Source of the DNA: Nitrososphaerota archaeon
Lineage (GTDB): Archaea > Thermoproteota > Nitrososphaeria > Nitrososphaerales > JACPRH01
Direction: 5' to 3'
NCBI GenBank assembly: GCA_016190055.1
Contig: JACPRH010000057.1
Coordinates: 2,434 to 66,433, forward strand
DNA: 64,000 nucleotides
Below, one piece after another: positions 4,183-52,511 of this stretch. The notes beneath the pieces were generated by a model. The model was not told the DNA's origin. It searched no databases and saw nothing but the letters and a program-made list of their open reading frames with translations. Numbering within the stretch: the stretch's first letter is position 1; every line of letters starts with the position of its first letter. A program made the translations under genes and the position numbers.

Positions 4183-4878
4183 TCACCTTTCAACAGTCGC
4201 CTGAGCCGCTCCTCTCGTAGCGGAGCCAAGCCGCTCCAGCAGCGACGCATGCACACCGGCAGTTATTTCAACCAAAGCCGTCAACGAGCCATCCGAACCC
4301 CACTCCTCCTTAAGGATCTCGCCGGACCCTTTGAGAACACCAATAGCCTGCGGCGCAAACTGAGGAGGAACCTTGACCCGGATCTTCATCTTCTCAGACT
4401 TCAAAGGTATAACAGGACGAAGCAGATCCACAACAACCTTGGTCTGCTCCTGCACATCCTTAAACGGATCAATAGACACCCTGATCTCCTGCATAGCCTG
4501 CTCAATCCTTGTAGGCGGATGAGGCAACCCTGTCCGCGGATCAACAAAGTTCCGCGCAATAATAGAAACTATCTGCTTACGCTTATCCTCAACTATCTTA
4601 CGACGCTGATCAGTAGTGAGCTGAAGATCCCCACGTTTAAGCACAATCTTAGCGGCTTCAGCGTGATCAGTCGTCCCCAGACTCTTCTTCAGCTTCTCAG
4701 CATTTGCACGAAGTCCCTTAGAGGAGTCTGAGTAAACCTCATCGATCGCTATAACCTGAGACAACTCGACGTTCCTTCCTAGTTTAAAGCTAAGAGCGTT
4801 GTCCGGGTTGACCAAAATCTCGAAACGTTCACCGTCCACCGTAAGGCGGACTGTGGTAAATTTGCCAGACATTTGCAA
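4183..4878 (-). CDS. SBDS/Sdo1 family ribosome maturation protein
   Basis: 231 aa: TVRLTVDGERFEILVNPDNALSFKLG...VYSDSSKGLRA...LGTTD. Occupies the conserved position between psmA and rrp4. Confidence 0.85.
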   Translation of the reverse strand: MQMSGKFTTVRLTVDGERFEILVNPDNALSFKLGRNVELSQVIAIDEVYSDSSKGLRANAEKLKKSLGTTDHAEAAKIVLKRGDLQLTTDQRRKIVEDKRKQIVSIIARNFVDPRTGLPHPPTRIEQAMQEIRVSIDPFKDVQEQTKVVVDLLRPVIPLKSEKMKIRVKVPPQFAPQAIGVLKGSGEILKEEWGSDGSLTALVEITAGVHASLLERLGSATRGAAQATVER

Positions 4879-16556: not shown

Positions 16557-17954
16557 ATGAATAAGTTGGATGAGGTTATCGGGGAGGCGGGGAGGCTGGT
16601 TGAGCCGACGCTCAGCGAAGAGAAGGAGGTTAGACGTGTGGCTGATAATCTTCGGCGCCGCGTTGAGGAGGCTGCCAAGGACGCTGAGGGTGCTGTTTCA
16701 GTTGAACTTGGCGGGTCTTACGCTAAGGGTACTTGGCTGAATGGTTTTGTGGATATTGACATCTTTGTAAAGTTCTCTACGGGCCTTTCTAAGAAGCGGC
16801 TTGAAGAGGTAGGAATAGAGATTGGGCGGAGAGCTTTAGAGGGGCATAGATGGTTTCTCCGCTACTCTGAGCATCCCTATGTTGAAGGAGTTATGGATGG
16901 GATTAAGGTTAACGTTGTAGCCTGCTACAATGTTGCTGAGGGTAGGTGGCAAAGTGCGGCTGACAGGTCACCGTACCACACTAAGCTGATACTTTCCCAC
17001 TTCAACGACGAGATGAGAAGGGAGGTTCGGCTTCTCAAACGGTTTATGCGTGGAACAGGGTTGTATGGAGCAGAGATCAAAACTCAAGGCTTCAGCGGCT
17101 ACGTATGCGAAGTGTTGATTCTGAAGTACGGTTCGTTCCGCGGAGTCCTTGAAGCAGCATCAAAATTCCGGGAAGGCGATATCGTCAGCATTGAAAATGT
17201 TAGCGAAGAGCAGGTTAAGAAGCTATTCCGGACGCCGTTGATAATTCTTGATCCGGTTGATCCTGCTAGAAACCTCGGAGCAGCCATTTCGCTGGAGAAG
17301 GCGGCTTCATTAGTGCTAGCGTCCAGAGCCTTCCTTAACGATCCGCGGATGGTCTTCTTCAAGGGTAGAGATGCAGATGATGTTCATCGTCAGCTTGAGG
17401 GGTCTCCGCTTCTCGGGAATGCTCTCGTAGCGGTTTTTCGGCATGAGCCGCGGATGGTGGATATTCTGTGGGGGCAGTTGAAGCGGAGTGAACATAGGTT
17501 GACTGGGCAGCTTTCTAAGGCTGGGTTTAACGTGTTGAGGAGCGCCTCTGCGAGTGATGAAGGTGGGTCGAGTGGCTTTGTCTTTCTGCTGGAGTCGCTG
17601 GAGCTGCCTAAGGATCAGGTTAAGATTGGCCCTAAGGTTGATATGGGTGAAGATGTAGGGATATTTCTTAAGCGTAACCGGGATCGGGTTAAGCTTCTCT
17701 GGGTCGGGGAGGATTGGCGGGTGTATGGGTCCGGTGAGAGACGGTATTACTGGGCGGCTGAGCTGCTTGAGGCGCTGCTTGCAGGGAAAGTGTCTGGTTC
17801 GGGAGTGGCTCCTGGATTGAAGAAGGAGGCTGAAGCTAGCTCCAAGATACTTTTGGGCGGTGAAGCACTGGAGTACGCTGGAGACCGTCGGTGGCTTCTG
17901 GAGGCGTTGTGGAAGGTTGTCTCAACAGACGAGTACAGTTTCGGTTCCGGTTAA
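16557..17954 (+). CDS. cca: CCA-adding enzyme (class I archaeal tRNA nucleotidyltransferase)
   Basis: ELGGSYAKGTWLNGFVDIDIFV nucleotidyltransferase motif and SPYHTKLI, with typical length. Start set at the ATG of MNKLDEVI. Confidence 0.85.
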   Translation: MNKLDEVIGEAGRLVEPTLSEEKEVRRVADNLRRRVEEAAKDAEGAVSVELGGSYAKGTWLNGFVDIDIFVKFSTGLSKKRLEEVGIEIGRRALEGHRWFLRYSEHPYVEGVMDGIKVNVVACYNVAEGRWQSAADRSPYHTKLILSHFNDEMRREVRLLKRFMRGTGLYGAEIKTQGFSGYVCEVLILKYGSFRGVLEAASKFREGDIVSIENVSEEQVKKLFRTPLIILDPVDPARNLGAAISLEKAASLVLASRAFLNDPRMVFFKGRDADDVHRQLEGSPLLGNALVAVFRHEPRMVDILWGQLKRSEHRLTGQLSKAGFNVLRSASASDEGGSSGFVFLLESLELPKDQVKIGPKVDMGEDVGIFLKRNRDRVKLLWVGEDWRVYGSGERRYYWAAELLEALLAGKVSGSGVAPGLKKEAEASSKILLGGEALEYAGDRRWLLEALWKVVSTDEYSFGSG

Positions 17955-17982
17955 CGAGCTCGCTTCAGAGCCATACATACAG

Positions 17983-18693
17983 GTGCTCTGCTACCCGTCA
18001 CATGATGTGGAGGAGGCTGAACGTAGAGTTCAGGAGCTCAAAGGGCTAGGCGTATCGCGAATAATCTTTGAGGGACGAACAAAGATTGGGAACCTTGGTC
18101 TTCTCGGCAAAGGCTGCGTCGGCCTAGTCGTGAAGGCTGAGACGCTGAATAGAGAGGTCTACGCTTTGAAGATTAGGAGAATGGATGCCAATCGTTCTTC
18201 GATGCTGCGTGAGGCGGATCTGCATTGGATAGCTAACAGTGTTAATGTTGGAGCTAAGCTGTTCAAGGCTTCGGACAATTTTCTGCTGATGGAAGTGGTT
18301 AACGGTGAGAGCATCAACACTTGGATCAGTAAGTTGTGGGGGGTGGGTTCGACCGTTCGGATGCGGGAGGGTGCGAGGGCTGTGTTGGAGCAATGTTTCA
18401 GGCTTGATCAGGCTGGGCTTGACCATGGTGAGCTGAGCAATTTGGAGAAGCATGTGTTCGTCGGTAGACGTATAGTGATTCTTGATTTTGAAACGGCGAG
18501 TAGGGATCGGCGGCCTTCGAATGTAACGTCGGCGCTGCAGAACATCTTGGTTGGTGGGCCACAGTCTAAGAAGGCGCGCAGACTGATTGGTGTATTAGAT
18601 ATGGGGACGATTATTGAAGCGGTGAGACGATATAAGCAGGAGCCGGTTCGGGAACGGTTTGATGAGATGCTTAGAGAACTTAGGCTCTGCTAA
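17983..18693 (+). CDS. small RIO/Bud32-like Ser/Thr protein kinase
   Basis: G-loop LLGKGCVGLVVKA, VYALKIRR lysine, catalytic HGELSNLEKHV and ILDFETAS. The ORF is open from the GTG at 17860, overlapping cca. I chose the in-frame GTG at 17983, after the cca stop; the start is uncertain. Confidence 0.6.
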   Translation: MLCYPSHDVEEAERRVQELKGLGVSRIIFEGRTKIGNLGLLGKGCVGLVVKAETLNREVYALKIRRMDANRSSMLREADLHWIANSVNVGAKLFKASDNFLLMEVVNGESINTWISKLWGVGSTVRMREGARAVLEQCFRLDQAGLDHGELSNLEKHVFVGRRIVILDFETASRDRRPSNVTSALQNILVGGPQSKKARRLIGVLDMGTIIEAVRRYKQEPVRERFDEMLRELRLC

Positions 18694-27877: not shown

Positions 27878-30145
27878 TCATCCGTCGGGGTCATCGTCGT
27901 ACTGGTTCTGCTTAATTTCCCAGAAACCTCCTTCCTCGCTTGCCACAACAAAGCTGTAGCCTTCCCCGTAGAAGCCTATTGCTTCACCCTGTTGGTTGGA
28001 GAAGCTTATGCGCCACTGCTTGGTTGGTGAAGTGAAGAAGTCAGCTACGTTGGTGGAGGTTGCGCTTCGCTCGATTATCCAGTGGTAGTTGCTTTGGTCG
28101 TTGATCAGCGCGAGTCTGCGTCCATCAGCTGAGATGTCGGCGCCTGTGATGTAGATGCCTCCAGTAAACTTACCCACGTAGTTCAGCGTGACAACTCGCG
28201 ATGAATCTAAGGTGGGGAATGCGTATACTTCTGTGTCCGACCGCTTCTGCACTAAGTATGGAGTGTCCTGCCAGATGAAAAGAGCCTCAGCGTCACGTGC
28301 TCCGTTAGGGTAGACAAACCTGTAAGCGATTGCCGCTGATGTGTTTGTTTCGCTACCGTAAGGGTCCGGCTCGTCAACCTTGTATAGCACGTAGCTGCTG
28401 TAGACTTCGTCGTTGTCACCTGTATCGCCTATCCATATGTGACCGCTTTCATCTATAGCAATTTCCTCCCAGTCGCGGTTAATTGCTCCAGACACCTCGA
28501 AGACACGTTTGGTGGCTCCTGTCCAATCGATAGCATAGAGGTACGCCGGGTTACCGGAGTCAGACATCATCCAATAAATTCCAGGATATGTTCTAGAGGC
28601 TACGATACCTGACCCTTCTGGCACATAATGGGTACCAAGGCTTGTTGGAGTTACTGAGAGCTCCGTCTCGCTAGTTGTGGTTGTCGTCGTAGTTGAAGTG
28701 GTGGTCGTAGTCGTGGTTGTAATAGTTGAGCTAGTCGTCGTAGTTGATGTAGTTGTAGTGGTGGTTGTGCTTCCGCTGGTAGCCGTGAACTTGTATGTTA
28801 CCTGCGCTATGCCCGTGCTCCACATGCCGTAGTATGTGCTGTTGCTTAGCAGTAGTACTCCGCCTGGCCCTGTCACCTGAACATTCTGTACTCCAGACGA
28901 GTGACCGCTGATCTCCTTGAATGTGACTGTATTGGCTCCTGTCACCACATACGTCGAGATGTCTAGTGAGTAGCCAGTGAACACACCGCTGTTCTGAGGT
29001 GTTTCACTTGCAGGCAGCGTAGATACTACCTGATTGTTAACTAGGACTGTGGCCTCATCCTTGTTGTCGTAGTCGTAGCCTTGGAAGCTTAGGGTGTATT
29101 GTCCATTGGGAGAAGAAGTGGTTGTTGTGGTCGTCGTAGTTGTAGTAGAAGAAGTTGTTGTAGTCGTTGTAGTGATGGTCGTAGTGGATGTTGATGTGCC
29201 GGTGTTGAAGTTGTAGCTTGCAGTGCTTGTACCACCTACCCATAGATCATTGCGCGTGTTGTCGCTAAGCAGCACTACTCCATTTGGCCCGGTTACCTGA
29301 ACAGCCTGTAATCCTGAAGAGTACTGGTTCTGTTTGAATGTAATGGTATTGGCGCCTGACACCACGTAACCAGATATGTCTATTGAGAAGCTCGCCCACG
29401 CATTGTTGTTCTGGGAAGCCCAAGATGCGGGGAGCGTAGCTACCGTTTGGTCGTTCACCAGTATAGTGACTTCGCTCTTGCTGTCATAGTCGTATCCTTG
29501 GAACGATAGTGTGTATGCACCGCTTGGCGGAGAAGTGGTTGTTGTGGTCGTCGTAGAAGTAGAAGTGGAAGAAGTCGTTGTGGTTGTAGTTGTAGTGGTA
29601 GTCGTAGTAGTGGTTGTGGTCGTGGTGTTGCTGGTTAGCGTTGTGGTGGATGTGCTGGTTGTAGCGGCAATGTTGAATTTGTATGTGAGGGGCTGTTTGG
29701 ATCTGCTTACCCAGATTTCGTAATAGGTACTGTTGCTGTAAACTTCGCCATCTGCATTCTTGATCACCACGTTTTTCACTCCTGAGGAGTAAATGTTCTG
29801 ACTGAAGGTTAACGTATTGGCGCCGTTCACTACTAATTCAGAGATGTCGAGTGAGTAGTTGACGAACTGGTCGCTGTTCATAGGAGAATTGCTTGATGGT
29901 AGCGCTGCAACTGGTTGGTTGTTGACCAAGATGGTCACCTCGCCCTTATTGTCGTAGTCGTAGCCTTGGAAGGATAGTGTGTAGGTTGGCGAACTGAAGG
30001 TGCTTATTGTTGGTTCAGTTGCGGGGGTAGAATTTGTGTAGTTGGTAGAGAGAAGCAGAGATACTGTAAGCATTGTAAGTAAAACTGCTGCCACTTTTGT
30101 AATTTTGATATATTTTTCTTTCTTCTGGATGGCTTGAAGCGACAA
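27878..30145 (-). CDS. membrane-anchored surface protein: 3 tandem ~105-aa modules separated by poly-Thr/Ser linkers, plus a C-terminal beta-propeller-like domain
   Basis: 755 aa with an N-terminal hydrophobic anchor (VAAVLLTMLTVSLLL). YTLSFQGYDYD occurs three times (aa 55, 211, 350). Thr/Ser linkers run 30-45 aa. The C-terminal ~255 aa (YWMMSDSGNP..., IWIGDTGDN..., GADISADGRRLAL) resembles phytase-like or SdiA-regulated propellers. Confidence 0.8.
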   Translation of the reverse strand: MSLQAIQKKEKYIKITKVAAVLLTMLTVSLLLSTNYTNSTPATEPTISTFSSPTYTLSFQGYDYDNKGEVTILVNNQPVAALPSSNSPMNSDQFVNYSLDISELVVNGANTLTFSQNIYSSGVKNVVIKNADGEVYSNSTYYEIWVSRSKQPLTYKFNIAATTSTSTTTLTSNTTTTTTTTTTTTTTTTTTSSTSTSTTTTTTTSPPSGAYTLSFQGYDYDSKSEVTILVNDQTVATLPASWASQNNNAWASFSIDISGYVVSGANTITFKQNQYSSGLQAVQVTGPNGVVLLSDNTRNDLWVGGTSTASYNFNTGTSTSTTTITTTTTTTSSTTTTTTTTTTSSPNGQYTLSFQGYDYDNKDEATVLVNNQVVSTLPASETPQNSGVFTGYSLDISTYVVTGANTVTFKEISGHSSGVQNVQVTGPGGVLLLSNSTYYGMWSTGIAQVTYKFTATSGSTTTTTTTSTTTTSSTITTTTTTTTSTTTTTTTSETELSVTPTSLGTHYVPEGSGIVASRTYPGIYWMMSDSGNPAYLYAIDWTGATKRVFEVSGAINRDWEEIAIDESGHIWIGDTGDNDEVYSSYVLYKVDEPDPYGSETNTSAAIAYRFVYPNGARDAEALFIWQDTPYLVQKRSDTEVYAFPTLDSSRVVTLNYVGKFTGGIYITGADISADGRRLALINDQSNYHWIIERSATSTNVADFFTSPTKQWRISFSNQQGEAIGFYGEGYSFVVASEEGGFWEIKQNQYDDDPDG
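28781..29983 (-). repeat. three in-frame tandem copies of a ~105-aa coding module (approx. 29672-29983, 29204-29515, 28781-29098)
   Basis: The Tyr codon that opens the YTLSFQGYDYD motif sits at 29981-83, 29513-15 and 29096-98. The motif is followed each time by EVTILVNNQ..LP...Y/FS(L/I)DIS.(L/Y)VV.GANT(L/I/V)TF...SSG(V/L)Q.V.V. Confidence 0.8.
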
Positions 30146-38601: not shown

Positions 38602-41178
38602 CTAGACTAGGCTCTTGTCGCCTTCAATGGGTTCGCTGATACTGGTTGGTTCTCCGTCTAGTATTCGCTGGAAGACTTCTGTCGCCCCGTATTTGCTAAG
38701 GTATTCGTTGTTGTTGCCGCAGCGGTAGGAGTAGGTGCATCTGGGGCAGCCGTCCTCCGAGCTGCAGGGGCACTCTTTCAGTATTGTGAGACCTCTTTTC
38801 ACTGCTTCTTCAAGCCGGTCGTAGAGGAGGCGGGTAGCTCCGTTTCCGCCGGCTGAGCTGTCGTAAATGAAGATTAGTCCTGAGTTTCCCATTGCTACTC
38901 CGCCCATGTCTGTTGCTGCACCGCCTGTAATCATGTTGGTGCCTTCTATTGTCACATGCTCGGTTGCGTGGAAGCTGCTTGCTGCAAGCTCATCCGGCGT
39001 TTTTTTCGGCTCGGAGTTTTGGAGCAGTATGTTTTCAGGTACTGGGGCTTTGAACACTATACCCTTTGTTCTGAAGGTGTATTTCACAGGTTCAGCCAGC
39101 ATCACTCGTTCTCCGCTCGCGACTTCTGATCCTATTTCGATGGTGGTGTAGCCTGACACTTTTCGTTGAATTAGAAGATCGCAGTAGGCTACTTCTAGGC
39201 CCATCACTTGCTTTTTGGAGTACACCTGTCTGATGGATGGCCACTCCTCCTTCAGAGACCGGGTATAGTACGGGTAGTTTGACGGCAGCCGCTCCACCTC
39301 AGCTCGACCTTCGTGCCGATAAAAGGTGATATTTTTTGACAGATATCTGGCTCCGCCTAGGAAGTAGACGGCGCCGGGGTGCAGCTCATCTAGGGCCTGT
39401 GGCATGCTTCGCTCGCCAACCTTTCGGTCGCCAAACATTACGGAGACGGTTTCACCTGCGCCTCGGATATCGTATCCTTGAAGTGTCCGTCGCGCTGCTG
39501 AGTAGTCTGGAATTAACCCCCTAGCAGTCTTGGAGAGCAGGTTGGACTTCACCATTTCGTCAAGAGTTTCTTGGAACTTGGAGAACTCTCCGGCCCTAAT
39601 CGGCTGATCGATGGCGGCGGCTAGGAGTTGGTAGCGCGAGATAACGGGGTTTGTTGGGTCGATGTAGCCGGGCTCGATGTCTTTGAAGTAGTCTTCAGGG
39701 TTGTTCTTGTAGTACTGGCTGATAGGGTCGCTTTCACGCAGTGAGATGAAGACCAGACTCTCTTGTCCTCTCCGCCCTGCTCGGCCTGTTCTTTGAATCA
39801 GCCGTGTCCAAGTTACAAGATCTGAGATGATTGAGTCTACGCTTCCAATGTCGATTCCGAGCTCCAAGGTGGGGGTGGAGGAGATTGCCTTCAACGAGCC
39901 GTTTTTGAACCGCTCCTCGACACCTACACGCCACTTCTGCGTTAAGCCAGCTCGGTGAACCTCAATAGGTATACCGTTTCGTCTACCGTAGAAGGCAGTT
40001 AGCTCAGCGCTGAGATGAGAGTTGGAGAAGACAATTGTCCGTCGCCCCGACTCCACAAGATGTTTTAGCAGATCCAGCGTAAGAGCTCGGTGGCTTCGCA
40101 GCGTCGGGAAAATCATAGCTAGGTGAATTACGCCGCGTTTTCCTCGGCCTCCTTCGATTACAACGAATTTTCTGCCGAAGAGGTCTTCGCAGAACTCCTT
40201 CGGGTTACCGATAGTAGCTGATGCCGCCGCTATCTGCAGTCCACCGCAGAGTCGTTCAAGCCGTTTCAAAACGAAGTAGATGTTGCTGCCGAATGTTCCG
40301 GTGTAGACATGAATCTCGTCTACGACCAGGTACTTCACGGTGCGGAGGAGTCTTGCGAACTTGGTTCGGTGGATGAAGTGGTGGTGAAGTGTATCGAAGT
40401 TAGTAATTACAATGTCCGGTGGATCCTCGATTATCCGGTACCTATCGCTCTGCGAAGTGTCTCCGTCGAACACATCTATCCTGACGCCGATTGAGCCGGC
40501 TAGCTTCCTGAGTTTTGGAAGCTGATCCCTTGCAAGCGCCTTAGTGGGGTAGACGAAGAGCGCTCTGACTGCTCTTTCACCGGTTCGCAGTGCACCGAAG
40601 CGACTGGTTTGATTCGAGATTAGCTGGATGACTGGTATTGCGAAGGCTTCTGTCTTGCCGCTGCCGGTCGGAGCAACAATCACAACGTCTTTGCCGCCGA
40701 TTATGGCTTCAACGGCCTTCTCCTGAAATCGGTAGAGATGGGTGACGTCTTCAGTGGCCAGTCCAGCCCATATCGCCTCATCAATTGGCAGCTGTTTCTT
40801 TTTGACGCCGGGATCCGGCTCCTCAGCGGGTATGCGTCGGTAGAGGGCAGGGTAGTCCTGCTGCGAGAGTAGAGCATCTTTCATCGGCTGTGGAAGATCT
40901 TGCAGGTTGCCGCCGCCGTCTTTGACGAGTTTTTCAACGGATGTTTTAGATCTACGGATTCCCTCGACTTCTAGGAGCTGTTCAAGTGACGCTATCTTCT
41001 TCACTCGGTCTTCGTCGAACTCTTCAAGCAGCTTCAGGTATGCTTCGTCAAGGCTGTTTATGTCGGGTCTTACGATGTGTGTCAAGTGGCACTTGTTGCA
41101 TCTGATGAGATAACGCCCATCGTATAGACGTTCAAGGCTTAGTTTTTGGCTGCATTCAGGGCAACGATACCGCTGCAT
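38602..41178 (-). CDS. DEAD/DEAH-box helicase with an N-terminal Zn ribbon and a C-terminal DUF1998/MrfA-type Zn-binding domain (YprA/MrfA-like)
   Basis: CPECSQ...CNKC ribbon. APTGSGKTEAF (motif I), VVDEIH (motif II), SATIGN (III) and QRTGRAGRRG (VI). C-terminal CPCSSEDGCPRCTYSYRCGNNNEYL. Start set at MQRYRCPEC (ATG at 41178). Confidence 0.85.
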   Translation of the reverse strand: MQRYRCPECSQKLSLERLYDGRYLIRCNKCHLTHIVRPDINSLDEAYLKLLEEFDEDRVKKIASLEQLLEVEGIRRSKTSVEKLVKDGGGNLQDLPQPMKDALLSQQDYPALYRRIPAEEPDPGVKKKQLPIDEAIWAGLATEDVTHLYRFQEKAVEAIIGGKDVVIVAPTGSGKTEAFAIPVIQLISNQTSRFGALRTGERAVRALFVYPTKALARDQLPKLRKLAGSIGVRIDVFDGDTSQSDRYRIIEDPPDIVITNFDTLHHHFIHRTKFARLLRTVKYLVVDEIHVYTGTFGSNIYFVLKRLERLCGGLQIAAASATIGNPKEFCEDLFGRKFVVIEGGRGKRGVIHLAMIFPTLRSHRALTLDLLKHLVESGRRTIVFSNSHLSAELTAFYGRRNGIPIEVHRAGLTQKWRVGVEERFKNGSLKAISSTPTLELGIDIGSVDSIISDLVTWTRLIQRTGRAGRRGQESLVFISLRESDPISQYYKNNPEDYFKDIEPGYIDPTNPVISRYQLLAAAIDQPIRAGEFSKFQETLDEMVKSNLLSKTARGLIPDYSAARRTLQGYDIRGAGETVSVMFGDRKVGERSMPQALDELHPGAVYFLGGARYLSKNITFYRHEGRAEVERLPSNYPYYTRSLKEEWPSIRQVYSKKQVMGLEVAYCDLLIQRKVSGYTTIEIGSEVASGERVMLAEPVKYTFRTKGIVFKAPVPENILLQNSEPKKTPDELAASSFHATEHVTIEGTNMITGGAATDMGGVAMGNSGLIFIYDSSAGGNGATRLLYDRLEEAVKRGLTILKECPCSSEDGCPRCTYSYRCGNNNEYLSKYGATEVFQRILDGEPTSISEPIEGDKSLV

Positions 41179-41233
41179 CGTTAGGTTACTCACTTGGCTT
41201 TCGCTACAATTCTGGATAAACAGCCATCTTAAA

Positions 41234-41938
41234 TCATATACTGCCGCTGCGACCACTGCTAGTGTTATGACAGAGATGCCTTTCGCTTAGGGCTGGTTTT
41301 AAGCTGCTGAGGTAGCTATAGGTTGCGGTGTTGCTTCGCCGTTTCATAAAGGTGTCTAGGTCCTGCGGCAAATCTAGATCAAGCATTACAGTTTCTGGGT
41401 GGAGTACAGTGAAGCGTACCTGCTTATCAGACGCGTAGCAGAGATGCGTTGGGTAGCTTGCTCGGTCGTAAGAGGTTGCGATGATTTTTGGAGGGCGTCG
41501 GAGCAAAGCGTTGGTACCGTCCTGCCGGGCTGAGGGTATAATTATAACAGAGGGTTCAGGCTTTGAGGCATCAACCATGTTGTTGATGTCTTCTTGTGTT
41601 ATGAGTGGGATGTCAGCTGGGAGAACAAGGGTTGAGGCTGCGCCGTGGTCTATGCAAAAGCTGTTGGCGTATTGAATTGCTTCGTTGATTCCCATAGGTG
41701 AAGGCTCCCTTAAAGGGGTGAATCCTACGGTTTTTGCAGTGTTTAGAGCGTCTTGGTCAGATGAGATGATGACGCATTCGCTTACTGCATGTGTTAATGA
41801 TATAGTTTTTAAGACATCGTGAAGCATTCGTAGAGAGAGTTCTTTCCGCTCATCTTTGCTGAGCAGCGGTGATAGTCGCGTCTTACCGTTATCCAGTTTT
41901 TTAACAGGAATAACTGTGAAGAGCTTCAAGACCTGCAC
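41234..41938 (-). CDS. cofC: 2-phospho-L-lactate guanylyltransferase (F420 biosynthesis)
   Basis: 234 aa: IPVKKLDNGKTRLSPLLSKDERKELSLRMLHDVL and DGTNAL motifs. Confidence 0.8.
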   Translation of the reverse strand: MQVLKLFTVIPVKKLDNGKTRLSPLLSKDERKELSLRMLHDVLKTISLTHAVSECVIISSDQDALNTAKTVGFTPLREPSPMGINEAIQYANSFCIDHGAASTLVLPADIPLITQEDINNMVDASKPEPSVIIIPSARQDGTNALLRRPPKIIATSYDRASYPTHLCYASDKQVRFTVLHPETVMLDLDLPQDLDTFMKRRSNTATYSYLSSLKPALSERHLCHNTSSGRSGSI

Positions 41939-42937: not shown

Positions 42938-43819
42938 GTGACCTACCCAGTACCAGAATCTTACGACTTTATATCAGCCTATATTACTAGTGTCTCGGAA
43001 GATATCTCTTTGAGTCCTGATAAGCCGCCAGAGATGAATACTAAGAGCTGGGAGTCGATGAAGAATTTTGTCGAGCAACATGAAGTGTTGACTGACAGTC
43101 TGTGGATACTCGGGGAGCGGGATGATAGTGGCGCGCATAGCGAACTTCACCACGGAGGCTTCATCCCTCAGATCCCTCGGCAGGCGATTCTCAGGTTCAC
43201 TCACCCATATGAGACTGTTATTGACTGCTTCTCAGGGTATGGGACAACATTGATTGAGTGTAGACGCTGGGGTCGGCACGGGTTTGGGGTTGAGCTTGAT
43301 AGGAAGATTCACGGAATTGCGCAGAGCAGAATTGAGGAGGAGCCGAACCGTTACGAAGTGAAGACGATGCTTGTTCGAGGGAACAGTGCCTCTTTTGATA
43401 TTCGAGGACGGCTTGAGGAGGAGGGGCTTGGAGAAGCGTCGCTTGCTGTGCTTCACCCGCCGTATCACGATATCATCAAGTATGGTGTGGATGAGGAGAA
43501 CCTTTGCAACGCCACATCGCTGAGCGATTTTCGTAACCGGTACGGAGCTGTTGTGGAGAACGTTGGGCGAGCGTTGAAGCCCGGTGGGTATTTGGAGCTG
43601 GTTATTGGCGACAAATACGGCAATGGAGAGTGGGTGCCGCTGGGTTTTCAGCTTATGGAGGAGACGGTTAAACGGGGGTTTAAGCTAAAGTCGATCTGCG
43701 TGAAGAACATTGAGAACACGATGGCGAAGCGAAGCCAGATTCATCTTTGGCGTTACCGAGCTTTGAAGAGCGGTTTCTACTTCTTCAAGCATGAATATGT
43801 CATGTTTTTCAGAAAATAA
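42938..43819 (+). CDS. SAM-dependent N-methyltransferase (N6/N4 DNA methylase-like; motif I before an HPPY motif IV)
   Basis: 293 aa, GTG start. HGGFIPQIPRQAILRFTHPYETVIDCFSGYGTTLIECRRWGRHGFGVELD (substrate loop plus FxGxGTT), then LAVLHPPYHDII and RALKPGGYLELVIGD. Confidence 0.7.
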   Translation: MTYPVPESYDFISAYITSVSEDISLSPDKPPEMNTKSWESMKNFVEQHEVLTDSLWILGERDDSGAHSELHHGGFIPQIPRQAILRFTHPYETVIDCFSGYGTTLIECRRWGRHGFGVELDRKIHGIAQSRIEEEPNRYEVKTMLVRGNSASFDIRGRLEEEGLGEASLAVLHPPYHDIIKYGVDEENLCNATSLSDFRNRYGAVVENVGRALKPGGYLELVIGDKYGNGEWVPLGFQLMEETVKRGFKLKSICVKNIENTMAKRSQIHLWRYRALKSGFYFFKHEYVMFFRK

Positions 43820-47415: not shown

Positions 47416-47591
47416 GTGCTTACACCATCTTCTCTAGCAATTCCCCTTGAAACGTGTTGACACATATTTATTGCATATGGTTGGTTGTGTTAACCGGTCG
47501 GGCTACAAGCATCTAAGATATGGTTCAATCTTTGAGAAACCGATTATATTTATTATGTACGTACGCAGCACTGTAGCGGTGTAGTTTGCAT

Positions 47592-48773
47592 ATGGACGAG
47601 CTTAACCCACCGGAGCGGCTTCTTCTTGGCGCCGGTCCTAGTAATGTTCATCCGCGTGTAGTGAAGGCGTTACTATCCCCGCTTGTAGGTCATCTCGATC
47701 CGTATTTTATCGAGATTATGGATGAGACTAAGAAGCTTCTGGCTAAGGCCTTCAAAACCAAGAATGAGTTTTCTCTTCCGATATCAGGCACAGGAACAGC
47801 CGCCATGGAGGCCGCTATCTGCAACCTTGTTCAAGAGGGAGATGAGGTTATCATTGGTGTTAACGGCTTCTTCGCTCAACGAATGTCCGAGATGGTTCGA
47901 CGGTGGGGCGGCAAAACCCTTGAGATTAAGAAACGCTGGGGCGACGTTACCACTAAGGAAGAAGTTGAGAACCTCTTCAAGAACAGCAACGCTAACCTCG
48001 TCGCGCTGGTTCAAGGTGAAACATCCACCGGTGCACTGCAGCCTCTGCAGGATATTGCTAAAATCGCTCGCGCTTACGACGCGCTGGTGCTTGTGGATAC
48101 GGTTACATCGTTCACAGGTGTCGATCTTGACATAGACGGCTGGGGTATAGATGTCTGTTACAGTAGCCCCCAGAAGTGTCTCAACGCACCCCCAGGCGCT
48201 TCACCCATCACCGTGGGAGACAGAGCGCTGAACCGGATCCGAAACCGTCGTAAGCCAGTGCAGAGCCTCTACTTCGACTTCACGTTGATAGAGCGTTACT
48301 GGAGCGAACGAAGAATGTATCATCACACCGCGCCAATCATGAATGTCTACGCTCTAAGAGAAGCGTTGATGATAGCGCTCGAAGAGGGATTGGACAACAG
48401 AATTGCGAAGTATAAGAGAAACTCCGAGGCGTTAATGGCAGGAGTTGAAGCAGCAGGACTGACGATGAATACAGAGCATCAGTACACGCTACCGTCTCTG
48501 AATGCGGTAAGGGTTCCGGAAGGAGTTGATGCGGACAAGGTGAAGAACATCTTCCTCGACCGGTTCAACACAGAGATCGGCGCCGGCCTAGGCGAGTTAA
48601 AGGGGCAGGTATGGCGAGTCGGCTTAATGGGGCTTAACTCAAGCGAGAGAAACGTTCTCTTCTTCCTAGAGGCGCTCGAAGTTTCGCTGCGGAAGGAGGG
48701 TCATTCGTTAAAGCCTGGCGTAGCGGCTAACGCAGCCGTCGACTACTACGACGCACACCAGCCGATCAACTAG
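47592..48773 (+). CDS. class V aminotransferase (alanine-glyoxylate / serine-pyruvate type)
   Basis: LLLGAGPSNVHPRVVKAL, SGTGTAAMEAA, DTVTSFTG and SSPQKCLNAPPG (PLP lysine). ATG at 47592; a TTG lies 6 nt upstream. Confidence 0.85.
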   Translation: MDELNPPERLLLGAGPSNVHPRVVKALLSPLVGHLDPYFIEIMDETKKLLAKAFKTKNEFSLPISGTGTAAMEAAICNLVQEGDEVIIGVNGFFAQRMSEMVRRWGGKTLEIKKRWGDVTTKEEVENLFKNSNANLVALVQGETSTGALQPLQDIAKIARAYDALVLVDTVTSFTGVDLDIDGWGIDVCYSSPQKCLNAPPGASPITVGDRALNRIRNRRKPVQSLYFDFTLIERYWSERRMYHHTAPIMNVYALREALMIALEEGLDNRIAKYKRNSEALMAGVEAAGLTMNTEHQYTLPSLNAVRVPEGVDADKVKNIFLDRFNTEIGAGLGELKGQVWRVGLMGLNSSERNVLFFLEALEVSLRKEGHSLKPGVAANAAVDYYDAHQPIN

Positions 48774-48781
48774 TGGCTACG

Positions 48782-48932
48782 GGCTCGGTCCAATAATTCA
48801 AGTTCTTGCCTTGTTCTGAACAGTAGTAGTTGCTTTGAGTAATATTTTTTGTTGAGTCTTGAGTCATTTCCGCGTGAATCATTCGCAGTAATAGACCCGC
48901 AGATCTGATAAAATGAATTACTGGACTGAGCC
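48782..48932 (-). mobile_element. MITE copy A (151 bp, 19-bp terminal inverted repeats), flanked by the 9-bp direct repeat GTGGCTACG
   Basis: Termini are GGCTCGGTCCAATAATTCA ... TGAATTACTGGACTGAGCC. GTGGCTACG occurs at 48773-48781 and again at 48933-48941. About 90% identical over the full 151 bp, without indels, to the reverse complement of 51593-51743. Confidence 0.8.
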
Positions 48933-49011
48933 GTGGCTACGTAGAACTTTTTATAGCCCGTTTTAGCGGAGCTGATTGTAGAGGAGTAGCGTAAAGCCTT
49001 TGGGCAAAACG

Positions 49012-50253
49012 ATGAGCGAGAAAATACTTGGACAAAAGGCTGGTCGAGAGGTCTCAGCCGGCGAAATAGTTGTAACCGAAGTTGACTATGTTTTTGCGCA
49101 TGACGCAAGCGGCCCACTCACACTGGATCAGCTAAAGACTCTAAATATCTCTAAGCCCGCTCATCCTGACAGGACAATCCTCATTTTGGATCATGCGGTT
49201 CCAAGCCCAAACAGCACAATATCGAACAATCAAGCCCGGTTGAGAAAATGGGCTAAGGAGACTGGAAGTCGTTTCTCAGAGGCTGGTGAAGGTATCTGCC
49301 ATCAAGTCATGGCTGAGAATTACGCTAGCCCCGGTCAAGTAGTACTCGGAACCGATTCACATACCGTTACCGCAGGAGCCTTAGGGGCATTTGCGACAGG
49401 TATGGGCGCCACTGACATTGCGGTGGCAATAGGGTTGGGGAAGACTTGGCTCAGGGTTCCTGAGTCGATTAAGATTGAGGTTGAAGGAGCGCTGCAGCCC
49501 GGTGTCTACGCTAAGGATGTTATCCTCACCGCGATAGGTAAGCTGGGTGTTGAGGGAGCTAATTACAAGGCGCTTGAGTTCGTCGGCGAAACCATTTCTA
49601 AGATGCGTATCGATGAGAGGCTTACCCTTTCGAACATGGCTGTTGAAGCTGGTGCAAAGGTTGGGCTCATCTCATCCGACGCTACGACAAAGAAGTATCT
49701 TGAGAGCAGAGGTAGAGGAAAGAACTTCCAGCAGATCGCCCCCGACAAAAACGCTGAGTATGAGAGAGAAATGACTATTGAGGCTGAGAATGTTGAGCCG
49801 ACAGTCGCTTTCCCCGACAACGTTGACAATGTTAAACCGGTCAGCGAGGCTGCGGGGTTGGAGATGCAGCAAGTGTTCATTGGAAGCTGCACCAACGGCC
49901 GTCTACAGGATCTGCAGATTGCCGCTAAAATCCTGAAAGGCAAACACGTGAGCCCAAACATAAGGCTGATTGTTACGCCTGCGTCCCGCGAAACTTTGAT
50001 CTTGGCGATGCAGGACGGAACCATCGAAGCCCTGGTACAGGCGGGTGCCTCAGTTACTCCACCAGGATGCGGAGTCTGCTTCGGAGCGCTTGGCGGCGTT
50101 CCGGCCGACGGTGAACGCATCCTCACAACAACAAACCGTAACTTCTTGGGGCGAACAGGCAACCCGAACGCCGGAACATATTTGGCTTCACCAGCTACTG
50201 CAGCTGCGACAGCGTTGAAGGGTGCGTTAACCGATCCGAGGCGATTAGCATGA
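49012..50253 (+). CDS. leuC: 3-isopropylmalate dehydratase / homoaconitase large subunit
   Basis: Aconitase family: FAHDASGP, GICHQV, GTDSHT, GSCTNGR and the CGVCFG cluster ligands. ATG at 49012. Confidence 0.9.
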   Translation: MSEKILGQKAGREVSAGEIVVTEVDYVFAHDASGPLTLDQLKTLNISKPAHPDRTILILDHAVPSPNSTISNNQARLRKWAKETGSRFSEAGEGICHQVMAENYASPGQVVLGTDSHTVTAGALGAFATGMGATDIAVAIGLGKTWLRVPESIKIEVEGALQPGVYAKDVILTAIGKLGVEGANYKALEFVGETISKMRIDERLTLSNMAVEAGAKVGLISSDATTKKYLESRGRGKNFQQIAPDKNAEYEREMTIEAENVEPTVAFPDNVDNVKPVSEAAGLEMQQVFIGSCTNGRLQDLQIAAKILKGKHVSPNIRLIVTPASRETLILAMQDGTIEALVQAGASVTPPGCGVCFGALGGVPADGERILTTTNRNFLGRTGNPNAGTYLASPATAAATALKGALTDPRRLA

Positions 50254-50750
50254 AGACATTGAATGGGCGCGCATGGAAATTCGGTGACATGGTTACTACA
50301 GATCATATCTGCCCAGGACGATACTTCCATCTCAGAACAAACCTACCTGAGCTAGCAAAGCATACCCTTGAGGACGCACGCGCAGACTACGCTAAGAATG
50401 TGAAGCCGGGCGATATCGTGGTGGCAGGCCGCAACTTTGGTATGGGCTCAAGCCGTGAACACGCCCCAGTCGTGATCAAGGTATCAGGCGCATCAGCGGT
50501 AGTAGCGAAATCCTTCGCTCGTATCTTCTACCGGAACGCGGTGAACATTGGGTTGCCGGTGGTCATCTGCGATACTAGCCGAATTGAGGATGGAGATGAG
50601 CTATCCATCGATCTTGAAACGGGTAAACTGATTGATATGACAAAGAAGTTTGAGATCAAGTTTGCACCGATGCCGGCTGCAATGATGGGCATCCTGTCCG
50701 AAGGCGGGCTTGTTCCATACATTCAGAAGCATGGCGACCTGAAGATTTAA
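50250..50750 (+). CDS. leuD: 3-isopropylmalate dehydratase / homoaconitase small subunit
   Basis: 166 aa: GRAWKFGDMVTTDHI, NFGMGSSREHAP and a 4-nt overlap with the large subunit. Confidence 0.9.
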   Translation: MKTLNGRAWKFGDMVTTDHICPGRYFHLRTNLPELAKHTLEDARADYAKNVKPGDIVVAGRNFGMGSSREHAPVVIKVSGASAVVAKSFARIFYRNAVNIGLPVVICDTSRIEDGDELSIDLETGKLIDMTKKFEIKFAPMPAAMMGILSEGGLVPYIQKHGDLKI

Positions 50751-51534: not shown

Positions 51535-51592
51535 TTCCTAGAATAACGAAACCGAAGATTTAACAATAGCCTAAAATCTTTCGCTATGCACC

Positions 51593-51743
51593 GGCTCAGT
51601 CCAGTAATTCATTTTATCTGATCGTCGCGTGTATTGCTGCGAATAATTCACGCGGAAGTGACGCAAGACTCAACAAGAAATATTGCTCAAAGCAACTGCT
51701 ACTGTTCAGAACGAGGCTAGAACTTGAATTATTGGACTGAGCC
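51593..51743 (+). mobile_element. MITE copy B (151 bp, 19-bp terminal inverted repeats), flanked by the 9-bp direct repeat CTATGCACC
   Basis: Termini are GGCTCAGTCCAGTAATTCA ... TGAATTATTGGACTGAGCC. CTATGCACC occurs at 51584-51592 and again at 51744-51752. Inverted relative to copy A. Confidence 0.8.
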
Positions 51744-51784
51744 CTATGCACCTTTCAGTTAAAATACGACCCGTTTTTTAACGG

Positions 51785-52438
51785 TTGGTAGAGAACAAAG
51801 TGAAAATCCCATTAAACATAAAGGAGTGGCTAATTCCACAGGATAAAATCTTCTTCTCCCTTTTGGAGGAGCAATCTAGGCTTGTCGTCCAAGGCGCCAA
51901 GCTGCTTAACGATCTTCTACTTGACTACAAGGATGTCGCCAAAAGGCGAAAAGAGATCAAGGAGATTGAGCATAAAGGCGACGAAGTGGTCCATACTATA
52001 CAGGATCGGTTGGCACACACCTTCATCACGCCAATCGACCGTGAAGATATCGATCAGTTGTCATCGCTTTACGATGATGTTCTCGACTTCACTAACACAA
52101 TCGTCAACAAACTATACGCCTACAGAATTACGGAGATAACACGGGAGATGACGCTCTTCGGAGAAGTAATCCTGAAAGCAGTTACTGAGCTAAACGTAGC
52201 CTTCCAAAACATGCGCAGCCTAAACCAAAAGGAGATTGAGCGCAGAAGCGTCGAAGTGCACTTCCTGGAAAACGAGGCTGACGAACTCCTCAACAAATCA
52301 GTCGCCGAACTATTCGAGCAGAAGGACGTAATCCTGATCATCAAATACAAAGAGATATACGAAGATCTTGAAAGATTAACCGATGTCTGTGAAGACGTCA
52401 GCAACCTTCTAAGGGACATAGTGCTTAAGCACTCTTAA
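51785..52438 (+). CDS. DUF47 / PhoU-like putative phosphate transport regulator
   Basis: 217 aa helical protein (IEHKGDEVVH...ITPIDREDI...ENEADEL) immediately upstream of a PiT transporter, the classic DUF47-PiT pair. Confidence 0.75.
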   Translation: MVENKVKIPLNIKEWLIPQDKIFFSLLEEQSRLVVQGAKLLNDLLLDYKDVAKRRKEIKEIEHKGDEVVHTIQDRLAHTFITPIDREDIDQLSSLYDDVLDFTNTIVNKLYAYRITEITREMTLFGEVILKAVTELNVAFQNMRSLNQKEIERRSVEVHFLENEADELLNKSVAELFEQKDVILIIKYKEIYEDLERLTDVCEDVSNLLRDIVLKHS

Positions 52439-52511
52439 ATCTGAGGTACATCACCGCAGAGCAGAAGGAGATTGATGTGACACCTATAGAGGAGATTGGG
52501 TGACAAATTAA

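Follow-up and report, generated by a model that had tools for sequence, protein, structure and literature searches.

A probable miniature inverted-repeat transposable element with polymorphic insertions in groundwater Nitrososphaerota

Two 151-bp sequences, here called copies A and B, are found 2.66 kb apart in a 64,000-nt stretch of DNA from a Nitrososphaerota (Thaumarchaeota) archaeon (GenBank assembly GCA_016190055.1, contig JACPRH010000057.1, positions 2,434 to 66,433 of the forward strand; hereafter, the window). They are very probably members of a family of MITEs (miniature inverted-repeat transposable elements), i.e., mobile non-autonomous DNA transposons. Precise presence/absence polymorphism was observed between nearly identical genomes, which means that the family was recently mobile in this groundwater population. 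Several features associated with MITEs are found, i.e., small size, terminal inverted repeats, target-site duplications of constant length and variable sequence, no coding capacity, multiple unrelated sites, and both occupied and empty alleles.

Copy A lies at positions 48782-48932 on the forward strand, with a G+C content of 40%, compared to 50% for the window. Its arms are 19-nt terminal inverted repeats, GGCTCGGTCCAATAATTCA at 48782-48800 (+) and TGAATTACTGGACTGAGCC, as read forward, at 48914-48932 (-; GGCTCAGTCCAGTAATTCA on the minus strand), which are complementary at 17 of 19 positions. Each arm is directly abutted by the 9-mer GTGGCTACG (48773-48781 on the left and 48933-48941 on the right), and the left 9-mer starts with a G that doubles as the final base of the TAG stop codon (48771-48773) of an open reading frame (ORF; 47586-48773) for a class-V aminotransferase (Pfam Aminotran_5). 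Downstream are an ORF for an aconitase-family large subunit of the leuC type (49000-50253) and one for its leuD-type partner (50250-50750), for which the NCBI name is 3-isopropylmalate dehydratase small subunit. A first-pass annotation, made from the letters of the window alone, had described the 151-bp element, its 19-bp near-perfect inverted repeats, the identical flanking 9-mers and the G shared with the aminotransferase stop codon, and all of its coordinates were reproduced here. The ORF that it had reported across the element and antisense to leuC (48770-49117) also exists in the ORF list, without a Pfam match. The 19-mer at the end of copy A, with up to 3 mismatches allowed, occurs 4 times in the window, while only 0.01 occurrences were expected from shuffles, and for a 19-nt inverted repeat (≤2 mismatches, 100-500 bp between the arms) that is bordered by a perfect 9-bp direct repeat, our own estimate of chance occurrence is <1e-6 per 64 kb. 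Thus, the structure of copy A is not a chance arrangement.

A BLAST search of the 151 bp against the window revealed one further full-length copy, copy B (51593-51743, minus strand), which is also 151 bp long and is inverted relative to copy A. The two copies are identical at 136 of 151 positions (90%) with zero indels, and in their alignment the similarity ends exactly at the outermost bases of the repeats. The terminal inverted repeats of copy B are found at 51593-51611 (+; GGCTCAGTCCAGTAATTCA) and 51725-51743 (-; GGCTCAGTCCAATAATTCA on the minus strand), and they are flanked by a perfect 9-mer, CTATGCACC (51584-51592 and 51744-51752), which differs from the GTGGCTACG of copy A. The 2.66-kb interval between the copies holds leuC, leuD and the genes for a GNAT acetyltransferase and an acylphosphatase. 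Both insertions are intergenic, and the flanking genes and putative TATA boxes are left intact.

Eight near-identical contigs from independent assemblies, which were retrieved via the leuD and acylphosphatase proteins of the window, provided occupied and empty alleles of both sites. Sites A and B are both occupied in L010 (99.95% identity to the window), and site B is occupied in L008 and L014 (99.99-100%), in which site A is not covered. Site A is empty in L009 (93-98%) and in L012 and L013 (96-98%), none of which covers site B; both sites are empty in L011 (91-98%), whose gene order is the same as that of the window; and site B is empty in L015 (99.5-99.9%), in which site A is not covered. 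In every empty allele, the overlap between the paired BLAST segments is exactly 9 bp, which places a single 9-mer at each empty site. Accordingly, CTATGCACC occurs once only in the alleles that are empty at B (L011 and L015). At site A, both copies of the duplication bear a lineage-specific base (GTGGCTACG), and the empty alleles (L009, L011, L012 and L013) read GTGGCTGCG, once, as would follow from duplication of the target carried by that lineage itself. Such precise empty sites are the classical proof of transposition. They are also the opposite of what the first-pass annotation had named as its refuting case, in which the element and its 9-mers would be ancestral structured sequence: the element is precisely missing from contigs with 93-99.9% identity to the window, and these carry the 9-mer singly.

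The empty alleles of site A also differ from the window in the gene upstream. In the alleles without copy A, a CAG codon of the aminotransferase gene is replaced by TAG four codons ahead of the stop codon of the window (window 48756-48773), and the protein is 4 residues shorter. In L009 (about 4190-4219), an odd 416-aa product without a Pfam hit was called, which reaches within 5 bp of leuC.

Further copies were found in metagenomes. JGI metagenome contigs were scanned by exact pattern with a degenerate 19-mer, in which no mismatches were allowed beyond two R positions, and 12 loci were returned. L016 and L017 represent one site, with the duplication CTATGTCCC and a copy that is 75% identical to copy A; L024 is a separate site, with the duplication CGCTAATAC and a copy of 150 bp that is 81% identical to copy A; L022 is a further site, whose copy is cut off by the contig end; and L025 is an occupied orthologue of site A from a strain whose flanks are about 98% identical. 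Perfect 9-bp duplications are present at all four of the complete independent sites, and all of them are different (GTGGCTACG, CTATGCACC, CTATGTCCC and CGCTAATAC). All copies are located between genes. The search for more copies that had been proposed as a check thus yielded a second copy within the window and, from metagenomes, three or more additional sites, so that the outcome of no copies, which would have spoken against a transposon, did not occur; with their own duplications and the precise empty sites, these copies bear out the earlier reading of a non-autonomous transposon.

Other matches to the terminal 19-mer were rejected. The scan of species-representative genomes with the exact 19-mer returned 7 single hits where about 17 were expected by chance, and the single hit in the viral-contig scan (L028) is likewise attributed to chance. 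The 19-mer matches in Bathyarchaeia (L004 5944-5970, L018 1872-1899 and L023 3975-4001) lie inside a conserved ORF (285 aa in L004), and their flanks are homologous between the loci; they are therefore coding sequence rather than an element end, and the match is apparently a coincidence. The single-end hits in metagenomes (L019, L020 and L021/L026) had neither a partner end nor a transposase-like ORF, and L021/L026 are AT-rich and unrelated; the metagenome loci that are not MITE copies are single 19-mers, about as many as chance would give.

The copies themselves show some further regularities. Across A, B, L016, L017, L024, L025 and L027, the length is fixed at 151 bp (150 in one), with practically no indels even at 75% identity, and substitutions accumulate. 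The copy in L025 (1788-1938) differs from copy A of the window at 9 positions, all of which are in columns 41-74, and its flanks are 98% identical. This patch matches the copy at another site (L022 1-76), and the centre of copy A of the window is nearer to copy B. Such a patchwork suggests that gene conversion may have occurred between MITE copies. In L027 (887-1037 plus flanks), the MITE variant and left flank seen at the L016/L017 site (CTATGTCCC; L016 1507-2281) are joined to the right flank of site B (CTATGCACC; window 51725-52476). Its right flank is 99.9% identical to the window, and the switch falls in a stretch of 24 bases that both have in common (the 19-nt end together with CTATG). 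L027 could be a chimera that assembly produced via the repeat, or else the product of real recombination between two MITE copies.

At the four reconstructed sites, an A/T-rich, TATA-like box begins 5-6 nt from one edge of the duplication (window 48942-48956 and 51753-51766; L016, about 1672-1690; L024, about 1225-1237). With their spacers, the boxes read tagaac followed by TTTTTATAG, tttcag followed by TTAAAATA, gtgag followed by TAATATATTTTATAT and, on the other strand, cataga followed by TTTATTAG. In the window, TTTTTATAG (48948-48956, +) is 6 bp downstream of the copy-A duplication and upstream of leuC, and TTAAAATA (51759-51766, +) is 6 bp downstream of the copy-B duplication and upstream of a PhoU_div gene; as read from the sequence, each is a putative promoter element. 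The proximity could reflect either a target preference or survivorship in short archaeal intergenic regions and, with four sites and MITE orientation that varies among them, it is not significant.

Comparison among the copies revealed that each reading frame is stopped in at least one copy and that no frame is open throughout; substitutions among the copies lack a 3-base periodicity. Invariant columns make up 22 of 24 and 21 of 24 positions at the two termini, compared to 57 of 103 internally. Concentration of conservation at the ends is the prediction for transposase binding sites, and the pattern is thus consistent with a role of the terminal repeats as such sites. We propose that a DDE-type transposase, whose gene would lie at another place in the genome or in the population, would bind the terminal inverted repeats of 19-24 bp, would cut out or copy the element and would join it to target DNA that is cut with a 9-bp stagger, and that repair of this stagger would yield the 9-bp direct repeat.

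Three explanations other than a MITE were considered. The sequence could be ancestral and structured, such as a small RNA gene, a terminator hairpin or a regulatory repeat, next to which the repeated 9-mer would be a coincidence; the terminal repeats could indeed make a 19-bp stem in a transcript, and copy A, which is downstream of the aminotransferase gene, contains a T6 tract. The precise empty sites at orthologous loci exclude this explanation, which we regard as practically without merit, and different 9-mers are duplicated at the four sites. The T6 tract is not kept in other copies, and the Rfam search over the element, at gathering and permissive thresholds, returned no match. Moreover, RNAalifold supported the terminal-repeat stem alone, with an unfavourable covariation term and internal helices without covariation, and the fold of the single-stranded DNA (z = -1.7) is not unusual compared to shuffles. 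An artefact of assembly or binning, such as a chimeric join or a contaminant repeat in the metagenome-assembled genome (MAG), deserves hardly more credence. L027 does resemble a chimera or recombinant via a shared repeat, but identical occupied junctions were recovered in independent assemblies, i.e., the NCBI MAG, three Logan assemblies (SRR12113385, SRR12113390 and SRR12113401) and JGI Ga0209342, and the element is thus not an assembly artefact.

It is also highly improbable that copies A and B form a composite transposon with which the 2.66-kb segment of leuC, leuD, GNAT and acylphosphatase genes arrived as one unit. Although the inverted copies bracket the four genes and composites flanked by MITEs have been described from bacteria (PMC10969869), copies A and B each have their own matching 9-bp duplication, whereas a composite would leave only one, at its outer ends. 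The same gene order is found in L011 with both sites empty, L009, L012 and L013 are without copy A, L015 is without copy B, and copies A and B are only 90% identical. The separate duplications and the independently occupied sites thus remove the composite idea.

Some observations weigh against identification of these copies as a MITE. The distinct sites documented number only about five (two in the window and at least three in metagenomes), and presence/absence cannot by itself tell insertion from precise excision, either of which implies mobility. The search for an autonomous partner, in the window and in every collection scanned, found none: exact-pattern scans with the 19-mer, in which the two R positions were the sole tolerance, covered viral contigs, JGI metagenomes and species-representative genomes, and each of their hits was either a MITE copy or a single match attributed to chance. 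None of the window ORFs of at least 150 aa is a transposase (no gene with PF01609 and PF13737). Searches with the protein of the IS903 transposase were dominated by enterobacterial and other bacterial members, with no archaeal candidate, and matches in the 50%-representative search were 35-46% identical. When concatenated stop-free translations of the MITE were compared to a protein database, 0 of 8000 candidates scored. A profile hidden Markov model built from the copies, when run on the window and on the other loci retrieved, gave no further copy, the related short contigs found via window proteins held no additional copies, and the element had no blastn match in a plasmid collection. A transposase remnant inside the MITE was rejected, as the tblastn matches of 90 distant transposases were weak and not enriched at the termini, and the best of them read outward through the terminal repeat.

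For the parent of the MITE family, the best lead is a distant IS903-like enzyme from the IS5 family of insertion sequences (ISs), as the MITE terminates in GGC, duplicates 9 bp of its target and has repeats that match those of IS903. Members of the IS903 subgroup are 950-1150 bp long, encode a DDE transposase and generate a 9-bp duplication (PMC8431375). The MITE shares with them the 9-bp target duplication and the GGC terminus, but at 151 bp it is without the transposase (PF01609 and PF13737) that they carry. The annotated 1057-bp copy L029, with the repeat GGCTTTGTTGAATAAATC, was used as the IS903 reference. Each of the ten MITE ends agrees with the IS903 repeat over 12-13 of 18 positions, and over as many as 19 of 30; over the 19 terminal positions, 13-14 are identical, with GGCT..GT..AATAA.TC as the common scaffold. 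In end-anchored alignments with the real ends of each IS, the shuffle p was <3e-4 for IS903, 0.009-0.1 for IS256 and 0.08-0.25 for IS1, the last of which is not significant. The first-pass annotation had also proposed a search for a longer IS with the same repeats and a comparison with families that make 9-bp duplications; the latter produced this partial likeness to IS903, while a transposase-bearing partner did not emerge from the window or the scanned collections.

The likeness was then examined against a wider sample of IS903-group ends. In relatives from viral contigs, down to 69% protein identity, the repeat is unchanged, which is uninformative. A profile search and eight contigs provided elements with transposases 39-48% identical to that of IS903, whose ends were found by complementarity alone, and the resulting set comprised 13 elements and 26 ends, with transposases 39-100% identical to that of IS903. 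Of the 11 IS903-group elements in which both flanks could be read (three closer relatives of IS903 in addition to the new ones), four (L112, L115, L120 and L129) have clean 9-bp duplications. All ten MITE ends begin with GGCTC, and 25 of the 26 sampled IS903-group ends begin with GGC. The distant ends read GGC(G/T)TTGTTG(C/A)AT(A/G)AAT. Membership in the IS903 group is, however, not borne out at positions 5, 6, 9, 10 and 16, which are invariantly T, T, T, G and A in the 26 sampled ends and C, A, C, C and T in the MITE, although the other 14 positions agree. Thus, the group has the core TTGTTG and an A at position 16, whereas the MITE has CAGTCC and a T. Because this test of the conserved core failed, the MITE is not filed as a member of the IS903 group. 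That the parent transposase is IS903-like, from a distant branch of the IS5 family, is a tentative proposal that we consider less likely than not. The MITE family may represent a distant sister lineage of IS903 with altered end recognition, or it may belong to another family. The earlier statement that its terminal repeat is not recognizable from a described archaeal IS or MITE family stands; the ends resemble those of IS903 but miss the conserved core.

We lean slightly toward a parent outside the IS5/IS903 lineage, such as IS256, IS4, IS1, ISAs1 or an archaeal orphan such as ISM1, in which case the likeness to IS903 would be coincidental or convergent. Several other IS families also give 8-10 bp duplications, according to the ISfinder family tables. 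The five otherwise invariant end positions of the IS903 group that differ in the MITE favor such a parent, and the ends of IS256 are weakly similar to those of the MITE: 8 of 19 positions are identical without gaps and 12 of 19 with one gap in a hand alignment, in which AGTCC and ATAATT are partly shared. The duplications of the IS256 family (8-9 bp) overlap in length with those of the MITE, although IS256 itself gives 8-bp duplications, which counts against it as the parent, and its terminus is GA, while that of the MITE is GGC. For IS1, 6 of 19 positions are identical without gaps. Also compatible with another parent are the 13 IS families found in Thaumarchaeota (PMC6563490). Conversely, among the three ends that were compared in the same manner, that of IS903 matches best by a wide margin, and the uniform 9-bp duplication at all four complete sites combined with a GGC terminus is the signature of the IS903 group (PMC8431375). 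Taken as one, the proposals made here would describe the first MITE family documented in Nitrososphaerota/Thaumarchaeota, mobilized by an undescribed archaeal sister lineage of IS903 that has kept the GGC...AATAA scaffold with CAGTCC in place of TTGTTG, and preferring sites 5-6 bp upstream of TATA boxes. This joint reading is unlikely to hold in full; if it were true, a TATA-proximal insertion preference could rewire promoter-proximal DNA in compact genomes.

MITEs have been described in bacteria and in archaea, including Sulfolobus, Halobacterium, Haloquadratum and Desulfurococcus (PMC10969869). Like the known prokaryotic MITEs, the element reported here is small, non-coding and intergenic, with terminal inverted repeats, a duplication of fixed length and diverged copies, and it would be mobilized in trans. 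Unlike them, it is found in Nitrososphaerota/Thaumarchaeota rather than in other host phyla, and no parent IS was found for it. A survey of thaumarchaeal mobile elements reported 244 IS elements in 13 families, including IS5, and the term MITE is absent from it (PMC6563490); a full-text literature search for MITEs in Thaumarchaeota returned no relevant paper. Thus, the copies seem to represent a new MITE family of a known class, in a phylum in which MITEs are apparently unreported. As MITEs are well known and the mechanism is unsurprising, the value of the finding is local. The insertion polymorphism between genomes that are >99.5% identical provides a strain-level marker and a gauge of how active mobile elements are in a natural population of archaea, and masking of such copies would prevent spurious ORF calls, e.g., 48770-49117. 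If the partner is found, IS903-like ends with changed invariant positions (GGCTCAGTCCA-type ends) would be a natural case of co-evolution between a transposase and its ends.

The host is an uncultured groundwater member of the Thaumarchaeota/Nitrososphaerota known from an NCBI MAG to which the window proteins correspond exactly, and its relatives include RBG_16_49_8 from the Rifle aquifer. In addition to the genes described above, the window contains those for archaeal exosome subunits, SBDS, the proteasome alpha subunit, the thermosome, the CCA-adding enzyme, a RIO kinase and the F420 proteins CofC, CofD and CofE. Amid these well-annotated housekeeping genes are a 755-aa ORF (27878-30145, -) and a 277-aa ORF (17860-18693, +) that have no Pfam match at E ≤ 0.001. 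Between 38602 and 43819, a gene for a DEAD/Helicase_C protein that contains a Zn-binding domain of the MrfA type (MZB; 38602-41256, -) is found near those for an N6/N4 DNA methylase (42938-43819) and a protein with a V4R domain, and cofC, cofD and cofE are interspersed among them.

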